From the IMG/VR virus record IMGVR_UViG_2700989367_000011: 4,573 bases of DNA, one strand, 5' to 3'. Position 1 is the first letter of the stretch. Every line of letters begins with the position of its first letter. The position numbers and the translations under genes are program-made. Source of the stretch: a virus. Its lineage: Duplodnaviria; Heunggongvirae; Uroviricota; Caudoviricetes. Below the pieces are notes generated by a model. It worked only from the letters and a program-made list of their open reading frames with translations, was not told the origin of the DNA and ran no database searches. This document shows positions 1,345-4,573 of this stretch, piece after piece.

Positions 1345-3074
1345 GCCGGAAATCTTACCCCAACGTAAATGCTGCAAATCAGTATGCCCGGGATGTCGTG
1401 CGCGGAAAGATTGTTGCCTGCCAGTTTGTGATTCAGGCCTGCCAGCGCCATCTTGATGACCTGATGGCGGAAAAAAGTAAGTCGTTTCGTTACCGCTTCG
1501 ACAAGGACCTGGCTGAACGGGCCGCGAAATTTATTCAGCTGTTGCCGCACACCAAGGGGGAGTGGGCATTCAAACGGATGCCCATCACGCTGGAGCCGTG
1601 GCAGCTATTTGTGATCTGCTGTGCGTTTGGCTGGGTCAATAAAGGCACCCGGTTGCGCCGCTTCCGGGAGGTGTACACCGAAATCCCCCGTAAGAACGGC
1701 AAATCAGCAATCTCTGCCGGTGTTGCCCTGTATTGTTTTGCCTGTGATAACGAGTTTGGCGCGGAAGTGTATTCCGGTGCCACGACAGAGAAACAGGCGT
1801 GGGAAGTCTTTCGCCCGGCGCGACTGATGTGTAAACGCACACCCATGCTGACGGAAGCGTTCGGGATTGAGGTTAACGCCTCAAACATGAACCGTCCGGA
1901 GGATGGCGCGCGGTTTGAACCGCTGATCGGCAACCCAGGTGATGGTTCATCACCCCACTGTGCCGTGGTTGATGAATATCACGAGCATGCCACCGATGCG
2001 CTTTATACCACAATGCTTACCGGGATGGGGGCGCGACGTCAGCCACTGATGTGGGCCATCACCACCGCCGGGTACAACATTGAGGGGCCGTGCTACGACA
2101 AGCGGCGGGAAGTCATCGAGATGCTCAACGGCTCGGTGCCTAACGATGAACTGTTCGGGATCATCTATACCGTTGATGAAGGTGACGACTGGACCGGCCC
2201 GCAGGTGCTGGAAAAAGCCAATCCAAATATTGGCGTGTCGGTTTATCGCGAATTTTTGTTAAGTCAGCAGCAGCGTGCGAAAAATAACGCCCGTCTGGCA
2301 AACGTCTTTAAAACAAAACACCTCAATATCTGGGTGTCGGCGCGTTCGGCGTATTTCAACTTGGTGAGCTGGCAGAGCTGCGAGGATAAATCACTGACCC
2401 TTGAGCAGTTCGAGGGGCAGCCGTGCATTCTGGCCTTTGACCTGGCGCGTAAGCTGGATATGAACAGCATGGCGCGACTTTATACCCGCGAGATTGACGG
2501 TAAAACGCATTACTACAGTGTGGCCCCGCGTTTCTGGGTACCGTATGACACGGTGTACAGCGTCGAGAAAAATGAAGATCGACGGACAGCCGAACGCTTT
2601 CAGAAATGGGTGGAAATGGGCGTTCTGACCGTTACCGATGGTGCGGAGGTGGATTATCGCTACATCCTCGAGGAGGCCAAAGCGGCGAACAAAATCAGCC
2701 CGGTCAGTGAGTCACCCATCGACCCCTTCGGGGCGACCGGGTTGTCACATGACCTTGCTGATGAAGACCTGAATCCCGTCACTATCGTCCAGAACTTCAC
2801 CAATATGTCCGATCCGATGAAAGAGCTGGAAGCAGCGATTGAATCGGGACGTTTTCATCATGACGGCAATCCCATCATGACCTGGTGTATCGGCAACGTG
2901 GTCGGCAAAAACATGCCGGGTAACGATGATGTGGTGAAACCCGTCAAAGAGCAGGCGGAAAACAAAATCGATGGTGCAGTTGCGCTGATTATGGCGGTTG
3001 GCAGAGCCATGCTGTACGAGAAAGAAGACACGCTGTCTGACCACATTGAGTCCTACGGGATCCGCTCGCTTTAA
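1341..3074 (+). CDS. terL: Terminase large subunit (HK97 / Terminase_1 type), ATPase plus nuclease
   Basis: 577-aa ORF with a Walker A-like motif IPRKNGKS and a Walker B-like motif [11 protein letters not shown] in the N-terminal ATPase half, and acidic residues in the C-terminal half ([22 protein letters not shown]) consistent with the nuclease domain. Its size and position between terS and portal fit. The ATG at 1341 overlaps the terS stop. Confidence 0.95.
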
Positions 3075-3085
3075 CTGAGGTAATT

Positions 3086-3268
3086 ATGATCATGCTGATT
3101 CTCGCGCCTCTGGTGGGCGTGCTGGGTGCGCTTTTGCTGGCGTATGGTGCCTGGCTGATTTATCCCCCGGCGGGTTTTGTTGTTGCCGGGGCGCTGTGCC
3201 TGTTCTGGTCGTGGCTGGTGGCGCGATATCTCGACCGTACACGGCAGTCTGTCGGCGGAGGTAAATAG
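3086..3268 (+). CDS. Small hypothetical membrane protein (60 aa, two predicted transmembrane helices)
   Basis: GAGG (3077-3080) lies 5 nt upstream of ATG 3086. The translation [60 protein letters not shown] has two hydrophobic stretches separated by a YPPAG turn and a basic C-terminal tail. Its TAG stop (3266-3268) overlaps the portal GTG start. I do not recognise the family. Confidence 0.5.
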
Positions 3269-4424
3269 TGTTCTTTTCGGGATTATTTCAACGAAAAAGC
3301 GATGTGCCGGTGACCACGCCAGCAGAACTGCTGATGCTATCGGGCTGTCATACGACACCTATACCGGAAAGCGGATCAGTAGCCAGCGGGCCATGCGCCT
3401 GACGGCGGTCTATTCTTGCGTCAGGGTGCTGGCAGAGTCTGTTGGTATGCTGCCCTGCAGTCTCTACAAAATCAGCGGTACCCTGAAAACACGGGCGGTG
3501 GATGAACGACTGCATAAGTTGGTTTCGGCAAAACCTAATGGCTACATGACACCGCAGGAATTCTGGGAGCTGGTTATTGTCTGCCTGTGTCTACGGGGGA
3601 ATTTTTACGCCTACAAGGTAAAGGCACTGGGAGAAGTGGTGGAGCTTCTTCCGATAGATCCGGGCTGTGTGGAACCGAAGCTGAACAGCCAGTGGCAGCC
3701 GGTTTATCAGGTGACGTTTCCGGATGGTTCCGTGGATGTGTTGACCCAGAATGAAATCTGGCATGTGCGCACCCTGACGCTGGATGGACTTGTCGGGCTG
3801 AATCCCATTGCGTATGCGCGTGAGGCCATTTCACTGGCAGCGGCAACCGAGGAGCACGGTGCCAGGTTGTTTAGTAATGGTGCGGTGACATCCGGTGTGT
3901 TGCGTACGGAACAAAAGCTCACGCCGGATGCTTACGAGCGTCTGAAGAAAGATTTTGAGGAGTGTCACACGGGGCTTGGCAATGCTCACCGCCCGATGAT
4001 TCTGGAAATGGGGCTGGACTGGAAGTCGATGGCGCTGAACGCCGAGGACAGTCAGTTCCTGGAAACCCGCAAGTTTCAGCTGGAAGAAATCTGTCGTCTG
4101 TTCCGGGTGCCGTTGCACATGGTGCAGAACACCGATCGCGCCACCTTCAACAATATCGAAGAGCTGGGGCTGGGATTTATCAACTATTCACTGGTGCCGT
4201 ATCTGACCCGCATCGAACAGCGGATCAACACCGGACTGGTACGAAAAAGTAAGCAGGGCGTTTATTACGCCAAATTTAACGCCGGGGCGTTACTGCGCGG
4301 GGATATGAAGTCCCGTTTTGAAGCCTACGCCACCGGGATCAACTGGGGAATTTACTCTTCCAATGACTGCCGCGACCTGGAAGATATGAATCCGCGTCCC
4401 GGTGGTGTAATGCCGATCAGTTAA
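3268..4424 (+). CDS. Phage portal protein (HK97 family), apparently disrupted: N-terminus in a different frame from the body, and the 3' end runs into the IS4 terminal repeat
   Basis: GGAGG (3257-3261) lies 6 nt upstream of GTG 3268, and that frame gives a portal-like N-terminus MFFSGLFQRKSDVPVTTPAELLMLSG before stopping at 3400-3402. The portal body (…ISSQRAMRLTAVYSCVRVLAESVGMLPCSLY… to …GINWGIYSSNDCRDLEDMNPRPGG) is in the frame shifted by one and has no ATG/GTG/TTG start before ATG 3393. The final codons VMPIS and the stop (4407-4424) are read from the IS4 end. The ORF-track start at TTG 3177 is not supported. Confidence 0.8.
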
Positions 4425-4425
4425 G
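4408..4425 (+). repeat. Putative IS4 terminal inverted repeat (left)
   Basis: TAATGCCGATCAGTTAAG is immediately followed by a second GATCAGTT copy (the octamer repeats at 4415-4422 and 4426-4433). The other inverted-repeat copy and the target duplication are outside the window, so this cannot be confirmed here. Confidence 0.5.
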
Positions 4426-4457
4426 GATCAGTTGACCGATCCAGTGGCTGTGTAAGA

Positions 4458-4491
4458 ATCCGGAAACGCTCACTTGTTTCCGGATTTTTTT
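4458..4491 (+). terminator. Intrinsic-terminator-like hairpin (10-bp perfect stem, 8-nt loop, T7 run) inside the IS4 end, ending directly at the transposase ATG
   Basis: ATCCGGAAAC (4458-4467) pairs perfectly with GTTTCCGGAT (4476-4485), with loop GCTCACTT, followed by a run of T through 4491. The only Shine-Dalgarno-like element for ATG 4492 (GGA 4482-4484) lies in the 3' arm of the stem. Confidence 0.5.
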
Positions 4492-4573
4492 ATGCACATT
4501 GGACAGGCTCTTGATCTGGTATCCCGTTACGATTCTCTGCGTAACCCACTGACTTCTCTGGGGGATTACCTCG
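4492..4573 (+). CDS. insG: IS4 transposase, N-terminal 27 codons (3'-partial; runs off the window)
   Basis: The translation MHIGQALDLVSRYDSLRNPLTSLGDYL matches the N-terminus of the E. coli IS4 transposase InsG as I remember it. The frame is open to the window end. Confidence 0.8.
   Translation, partial: MHIGQALDLVSRYDSLRNPLTSLGDYL

Follow-up and report, generated by a model that had tools for sequence, protein, structure and literature searches.

A conserved hairpin at the left end of IS4 as a probable RNA insulator of the transposase gene

In IS10 and IS50, the inverted repeat at the left end includes the ribosome site of the transposase gene, and the element's own promoter starts transcription between the two arms. 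Only transcripts from outside fold, and these are translationally silent; Davis, Simons and Kleckner reportedly described this protection from external promoters in 1985. Both elements sequester their translation signals and both belong to the IS4 family, of which, according to the family review (De Palmenaer 2008), no members other than IS231A, IS10 and IS50 have received detailed study. That review makes no mention of a promoter, terminator or stem-loop. A different arrangement occurs in IS200, where a Rho-independent terminator at the left end acts against impinging transcription and a stem-loop sequesters the Shine-Dalgarno (SD) sequence (PMC4513863). Predicted terminators just upstream of transposase genes have also been surveyed under the names "IS 5' terminators" and mobile attenuators, and were read as limiting IS expression inside transcribed regions (Naville and Gautheret 2010, PMC2965389). 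The survey names ISBma2, IS3/IS2/IS600/IS1329/IS407A and ISL3; IS4 and insG are absent from its text and supplements. Our search found no paper describing a hairpin, terminator or promoter in IS4, no mapped transcription start and no termination or fusion experiments on it, with the earliest IS4 reports (1981 sequence paper), which may note the palindrome, lying outside its range.

Here we analyze a hairpin that abuts the IS4 transposase gene in a 4,573-nucleotide stretch of viral DNA, referred to throughout, at its full length, as the window. Self-protection by fold-back is already known in related mobile elements, and the IS4 hairpin would add a case. IS4 resembles IS10 (fold-back inhibition) and IS50 (read-through occlusion) in having a repeat that contains the ribosome-binding site (RBS) and a predicted transcription start between its arms, and all three elements carry GATC sites in the promoter region. 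Unlike in IS10 and IS50, the IS4 helix runs directly into U7, giving it full intrinsic-terminator anatomy, and the base of its 5' arm consists of the -10 hexamer itself. A promoter scan of both strands of IS4 revealed no antisense promoter of the RNA-OUT type. The mechanism has been demonstrated for IS10 and IS50, whereas that of IS4 is predicted from sequence. With IS200, whose transposase belongs to an unrelated family, IS4 shares left-end terminator anatomy and an RNA helix predicted to hide the SD. In IS200, the two jobs fall to separate inverted repeats (nt 12-34 and 69-138) and the terminator is bidirectional, whereas one hairpin would perform both in IS4. The SD stem-loop of IS200 lies in the native leader and represses all transcripts, while the native IS4 transcript is predicted to escape. 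IS4 does not have the IS200-type layout: a single hairpin stands between the IS end and the ATG, with the predicted start inside it. Overlap with a promoter or ribosome site, as in the IS4 case, is not addressed in the survey of IS 5' terminators. IS4 would be a compact variant in which one helix combines a terminator, a lock on the ribosome site and a -10 box.

The IS4 left end in a cut portal gene

Comparison with intact P27-like E. coli prophages places the end of phage homology at 4407, and the following bases match positions 1-166 of K-12 IS4, including the left inverted repeat and the first 27 codons of the transposase gene (Table 1). Only these left 166 bp of the element lie inside the window, which IS4 runs off at its end. 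IS4 is recognized by its terminal inverted repeat (TAATGCC...), its length of 1426 bp and its 442-aa DDE transposase InsG; MG1655 contains one copy, annotated as "insertion sequence:IS4". A full copy of 1426 bp with an 11-bp target duplication is found at 1819-3244 of locus L001. The same 190-base sequence recurs wherever IS4 is: it was counted at 5049 places, spread over 2591 of the 5426 complete E. coli genomes.

Given the homology break at 4407 and IS4 identity from 4408 onward, the hairpin, whose core corresponds to IS4 positions 51-78 (up to 84 with the T-run), belongs to IS4 and is not a phage terminator. Its location just past the truncated portal reading frame could suggest a terminator of the phage itself, closing the portal gene, or else a palindrome that arose by chance. 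Both ideas are refuted by the end of homology, the IS4 identity and the 5049 copies in E. coli genomes. In addition, the intact portal gene runs on for 101 nt, and chance yields 0.017 perfect 10-bp inverted repeats (3-10 nt loop) per shuffled window, none of them followed by a T-run. We assign these explanations a negligible probability.

Table 1. Features of the IS4 left end and its surroundings in the window
Feature	Position	Strand	Evidence or remark
Prophage portal gene remnant	3268..4407	+	GTG start at 3268; homology to intact P27-like prophages
IS4 left end (positions 1-166)	4408..4573	+	100% identity to K-12 IS4
IS4 left terminal inverted repeat, TAATGCCGATCAGTTAAG	4408..4425	.	16 of 18 positions match the right end, TAATGCCAGTCAGTTAAG
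Predicted -35 hexamer, TTGACC	4432..4437	+	GATC at 4426-4429 and 4438-4441 on either side
Outer imperfect helix, 5' side	4440..4453	+	Pairs with 4491-4503 (AUG, codons 2-4) in read-through RNA only
Predicted extended -10	4451..4459	+	TG 4451-4452, AAGAAT 4454-4459; hexamer is base of 5' arm
Hairpin 5' arm	4454..4468	+	Perfect core 4458-4467, ATCCGGAAAC; fold and covariation
Predicted transposase mRNA start, A	4466 (about ±2 nt)	+	7 nt after -10; promoter geometry
Loop of extended hairpin	4469..4474	+	Fold; loop of perfect core 4468-4475, GCTCACTT
Hairpin 3' arm	4475..4489	+	Perfect core 4476-4485, GTTTCCGGAT; holds GGA 4482-4484
T-run: terminator U-tract, SD-to-AUG spacer, complement of -10 hexamer	4485..4491	+	
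IS4 transposase gene start (insG, MHIGQALDLV...)	4492..4573	+	ATG conserved in all relatives

The preliminary description, made from the letters of the sequence, had placed a perfect 10-bp stem, a T-run and an ATG at 4492, and all three are where it put them. The first of the seven T is also the last base of the stem, and the run adjoins the ATG (4492-4494) directly, without a gap. In RNA, A-U and G-U pairs extend the helix to 15 pairs, joining 4454-4468 to 4475-4489. The segment 4440-4510 has a minimum free energy of -32 kcal/mol (z = -6.25), and none of 200 shuffled sequences folds as well; the core hairpin accounts for -14.6 kcal/mol and the extended hairpin for -18.3 kcal/mol. Searched on both strands, 4300-4573 had no covariance-model hit in Rfam 15 at E-values up to 10. 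The outer helix was considered as a conserved lock on the AUG and rejected, with AUG accessibility ranging from 0.005 to 0.78 in the read-through RNA of relatives. Because it is not consistently predicted in distant relatives, the outer helix (4440-4452 / 4491-4503) appears in our models to be specific to this lineage and not a feature of the IS4 group.

In the intact prophage, the portal gene (L083 5655-6896) continues into a protease gene. The match with the window stops at 6795, and IS4 has cut the gene 101 nt short of its natural stop. IS4 is oriented in the same direction as the phage late genes, so that phage read-through would enter its left end, and the portal remnant is the source of any such transcription. 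Relative to the intact prophage, the portal gene also carries a 1-nt deletion near 3330 (CTGGC to CTGC) that shifts the frame, and translation from 3268 stops at 3400-3402. The gene is disrupted twice, by the frameshift and by IS4, with a sequencing error as another possibility for the former. Given the shifted frame, about 1 kb of untranslated RNA ahead of IS4 would be exposed to Rho. Elsewhere in the window, 223 N (728-950, masked) separate the lysis genes from an HNH endonuclease gene, and open reading frames across this run are meaningless.

Helix conservation and the predicted promoter

We fetched 80 loci coding for IS4-group transposases, from 100% down to 55% identical, originating from Enterobacterales, Halomonas, Pseudaeromonas, Ferrimonas, Corallincola, a Legionellaceae MAG and others. 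In nearly all of these loci, the 100 nt before the ATG contain a hairpin that adjoins the start codon and is built from quite different stem sequences, such as TCCAGAAACG/CGTTTCTGGA, TCCGGTGATTGA/TCAGTCACCGGA, TCCGAAACTCC/GGGTTTCGGA and TCTGAGTTCT/GGAACTCGGA. Covariation was assessed on a MAFFT alignment of 25 distinct versions (transposase 55-100% identical). On this alignment, RNAalifold returned the same 15-pair helix unprompted, with compensatory changes in 12 pairs. When a 16-pair helix was compared with slid partners across the 25 relatives, 90.8% of cells were paired (35-59.5% for slid partners), 71 cells were compensatory (at most 21) and the covariation score reached 0.528 (at most 0.135). 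Double-sided changes were present in 13 of the 16 pairs, and 0 of 500 shuffles reached the observed values. We regard the hairpin as a real, conserved regulatory RNA element.

On the plus strand, 33 cells are G·U and 4 are A·C, the latter corresponding to G·U on the minus strand. This excess indicates that the helix is selected as sense-strand RNA and not as DNA or antisense RNA. A palindrome acting as DNA, be it a cruciform or a site for transposase or a host protein, would be in keeping with the subterminal position, at 51-78 bp from the IS end, a region in which secondary sites of some transposases lie, and with the three GATC sites nearby. However, the stem sequence is free to change while pairing is kept, which is not how protein sites evolve, and a 33 to 4 ratio of G·U to A·C is the signature of single-stranded sense RNA. 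We therefore regard a DNA-level role as very unlikely.

At least five T abut the ATG in 21 of the 25 distinct relatives, and the run often exceeds the five needed for pairing; in L067, a tract of six T ends one base before the ATG. One Phytobacter copy of IS4 (L020 1-100) has had its left 84 bp swapped for unrelated sequence. The replacement ends in a hairpin and T-run of its own (CCACCTGC..GCAGGTGGTTTTTT), the start codon has changed to ACG, and the copy looks truncated and dead.

Scanning both strands of IS4 turned up a single sigma-70-like site, TTGACC-16-TGt-AAGAAT. A start at about 4466, equivalent to position ~4,503,457 on the MG1655 minus strand, would produce a 26-nt leader containing the 3' arm only. 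Within the -10 hexamer, all 25 relatives have A at position 2 and T at position 6, a pattern that is confounded by the pairing of both bases with invariant helix partners; TGn is present in 15 of the 25. Given that pairing could explain the -10 invariance, we tested the -35 element, which lies outside the helix. Of the 25 relatives, 17 have TTG at a spacer of exactly 16 nt; for each of the other offsets between 8 and 26, the count is 0-2. The mean match to TTGACA is 3.72 at the 16-nt spacer, compared with roughly 0.8-2.3 elsewhere. The TTG at this fixed distance is also found in lineages whose spacer cannot be aligned (e.g., TTGACT, TTGCAA and TTGATT). From these promoter elements, the native insG mRNA is predicted to start inside the hairpin, without the 5' arm.

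Were the native mRNA to start upstream of 4454, the hairpin would be part of every transcript and would serve as a constitutive attenuator or translational repressor. The SD-sequestering stem-loop in the IS200 leader shows that such a design exists, and the conservation of -10-like bases could stem from pairing alone. Yet the stretch from the IS end (4408) to the hairpin holds no other promoter-like site, and a -35 TTG held at 16 nt across unalignable spacers is beyond what hairpin pairing can account for. Moreover, a terminator of this kind combined with a lock of ~24 kcal/mol would nearly abolish transposase synthesis. A hairpin-bearing native mRNA is thus unlikely in our judgment.

Capping of RNA with NAD generally needs an A at +1. 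The insG RNA is reported to be 13% NAD-capped in exponential phase (PMC8040648), which is weakly compatible with the predicted start at A4466. The supplements of Kim 2012 and Mendoza-Vargas 2009 list no insG transcription start. An RpoD genomic SELEX study assigns the promoter-like sequence TTAACA-17-GATAAA to insG (PMC3946193). In MG1655, this sequence maps to the host flank (L082 5879-5907), 363-391 bp outside the IS4 left end and pointing inward, and being outside IS4 it is ruled out as the element's own promoter. An active promoter at this place would give rise to just the kind of read-through RNA that the hairpin is expected to neutralize.

Three GATC (Dam) sites fall within the first 35 bp of IS4. 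One (4415-4418) is located in the terminal repeat; the other two (4426-4429 and 4438-4441) flank the -35 hexamer within a small palindrome, GGATC..GATCC. Elements with 55-58% identity (L059, L079 and L080) have GATC at these three positions too, and in other clades a GATC overlaps the -10 instead. This layout recalls the Dam control of IS10 and IS50.

Ribosome-site access and termination

The triplet GGA, singled out earlier as the only SD-like element, is indeed the sole such triplet in the 20 nt before the ATG; it lies 7 nt from the ATG. In all 25 relatives, GGA stands 5-8 nt before the ATG inside the 3' arm, and no other SD-like triplet is present. The fold-back arrangement, with the SD in the 3' arm, is found in IS4 and kept in the 25 relatives. 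Regarding annotation, RefSeq/PGAP begins the transposase at TTG 4474 (448 aa, WP_000483767.1); this codon (4474-4476), where the hairpin loop meets the 3' arm, is not conserved in relatives. ATG 4492 (442 aa) is invariant in relatives, with the conserved GGA before it, and the hairpin data favor it over the TTG chosen by the pipeline.

Folding of read-through and IS-internal transcripts, the check proposed in the preliminary description, produced the contrast that it had claimed. In RNA starting at or upstream of 4440, the computed unpaired probability is 0.004 for the SD and 0.14 for the AUG, so that the RBS would be hidden. For RNA starting at 4464-4470, the values are ~0.47 and 0.78. The predicted native leader is not fully open: the SD is unpaired with a probability of 0.03-0.47 depending on the length of downstream RNA, the lower value applying with 40 nt of coding sequence. 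A more robust measure is the cost of opening positions -13 to +6. In IS4, this cost is 24.8/23.9 kcal/mol for read-through RNA versus 3.9/2.5 kcal/mol for the predicted native RNA. The medians across 25 elements are 19.6/19.1 and 3.2/4.1 kcal/mol, respectively.

We consider it probable that IS4 encodes the hairpin as a plus-strand RNA insulator, which protects its transposase gene against transcription coming in through the left end. Structure, conservation with covariation, strand, the positions of promoter elements and the thermodynamic contrast form the basis of this reading, and from them we infer the transcription start, termination and the translational block. RNA from outside IS4 would contain both arms, and the 15-bp helix and U7 would act as an intrinsic terminator with its release point at the AUG. 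In RNA that escapes termination, the GGA, the spacer and, in IS4 itself, the AUG would be locked in the helix; by either route, little transposase would be made from outside RNA. The element's own promoter, with its -10 inside the base of the 5' arm, would start transcription at ~4466. The resulting native mRNA would carry the 3' arm only, such that neither terminator nor lock could form and the U-rich ribosome site would be open. The insulation model advanced in the preliminary description is in this way supported computationally, and the protection that it likened to IS10 and IS50 is a documented strategy of these two members of the IS4 family.

The hairpin has the anatomy of an intrinsic terminator, namely an 11-bp stem of -14.6 kcal/mol and a loop of 6-8 nt, with the core stem followed by 6 U. 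A score of the d'Aubenton-Carafa type comes to about +29. A pattern-based terminator scan of the window and of IS4 did not list the hairpin, probably because the maximal stem swallows most of the T-run and leaves fewer than five T. Given this extension of the stem into the T-run, we take the miss as a limit of the scan and not as evidence. The Term-seq tables for MG1655 contain no 3' end at the IS4 left end, where little incoming transcription is expected.

Termination is not needed to explain the T-run, which could instead mirror an A-rich -10 by complementarity or form a U-rich leader for translation. Elements from Halomonas (L062, L066 and L071) are without the T-run, and their SD-AUG segment still complements their own -10-like hexamer (GACCTT/AAGGTC and similar). 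Since these elements have lost the T-run but kept the pairing, the lock emerges as the universally conserved feature. Across the aligned elements, what appears to be conserved universally is that the ribosome site pairs with the -10 region as transcribed into RNA. Where the -10 is A-rich, conserved pairing would give rise to a U-tract, and hence a terminator, automatically. In the same three Halomonas elements, the hairpin reaches -27 to -35 kcal/mol within 50 nt before the ATG. Their -10-like hexamer (GACCTT or GATCGT) follows TGa, with no recognizable -35. This subgroup may represent a lock-only version with an extended -10 promoter.

These observations bear on whether the helix has one activity only, as a pure terminator with incidental SD overlap or as a pure lock with a by-product U-run. 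For a lock alone, one can cite the Halomonas subgroup, which keeps the helix without the U-run, and the SD-AUG spacer, which always complements the -10. For a terminator alone, there is the canonical anatomy described above, with its -14.6 kcal/mol stem, 6 U and positive score of ~29, as well as a matching terminator at the right end with an observed 3' end. A lock alone does not account for the five or more T that abut the ATG in 21 of 25 relatives, often beyond the need for pairing, and a pure terminator would not require a stem that always ends 5-8 nt from the AUG and includes the GGA. A single activity is accordingly improbable; termination and lock are likely both active in IS4. We conclude that the lock is the deeper constraint of the two.

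The balance differs in the window itself. In a 94%-identical intact prophage, the same late operon is preceded by a Q antiterminator, and in lambdoid phages Q-modified polymerase reads through intrinsic terminators. Antitermination by Q makes the terminator branch doubtful in this operon and leaves RBS sequestration as the working layer; the terminator branch is weaker than the lock here. Behind Q-modified polymerase, the RNA lock would still form. Of the earlier proposal of a Rho-independent terminator for RNA arriving from the portal gene, the orientation and anatomy stand. Its owner is IS4 rather than the phage, and its termination activity is doubtful under Q.

Right end, target sites and implications

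The right end of IS4, outside the window (L001 3200-3244; MG1655 4,502,090-4,502,127), consists of the terminal repeat, its own complement and a T-run, and it faces inward. Read in that direction, the sequence TAATGCCAGTCAGTTAAGCAACTGACTGGCTCTTTTT is terminator-like. The right-end hairpin has a folding energy of -16 to -22 kcal/mol and is conserved in 17 distinct relatives. In MG1655, Term-seq places a 3' end at 4,502,127(+), exactly at the right-end T-run (PMC7815308 supplement), and the yjgZ-insG RNA binds Hfq (PMC4152368). The right-end terminator probably ends this Hfq-binding RNA.

We reconstructed empty target sites for 46 distinct insertions from the flanks of L002-L081. They consist of an A-tract, a GC hairpin and a T-tract, with the insertion at the hairpin apex; A is found in 85% at -19 and T in 76% at +18/+19, and the target duplication spans 10-14 bp. 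The targets of the IS4 group are bidirectional terminators. This profile fits the target consensus AAA-N20-TTT reported in the literature of the 1980s. The site used in the portal gene (4378-4407) is without the A and T tracts and shares the CCGGTG junction. The hairpin signal at target sites appears only when both flanks are read together, the 36-nt left flank alone being no more stable than controls (-4.95 vs -6.45 kcal/mol).

An element that splits host terminators would need terminators of its own at both ends. A possible reading, which we offer tentatively, is that IS4-group elements are "terminator-replacing": they destroy a host terminator and bring an inward terminator-like hairpin at each end, the left hairpin being a three-in-one module. 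That module would terminate outside transcripts, lock the ribosome site and carry the -10 box. If this reading is true, the strength of the promoter, the U-tract and the lock would evolve together, being the paired halves of a single helix.

A large transposon family has IS4 as its type element, yet little work has addressed how this element is regulated. The hairpin yields a precise prediction, a +1 at ~4466 (MG1655 minus strand ~4,503,457). The IS4 subgroup would share with IS10 and IS50 the logic of ignoring outside promoters, in a more compact form, and this bears on the polar effects of IS4, inserted thousands of times in the genomes of E. coli and Shigella.
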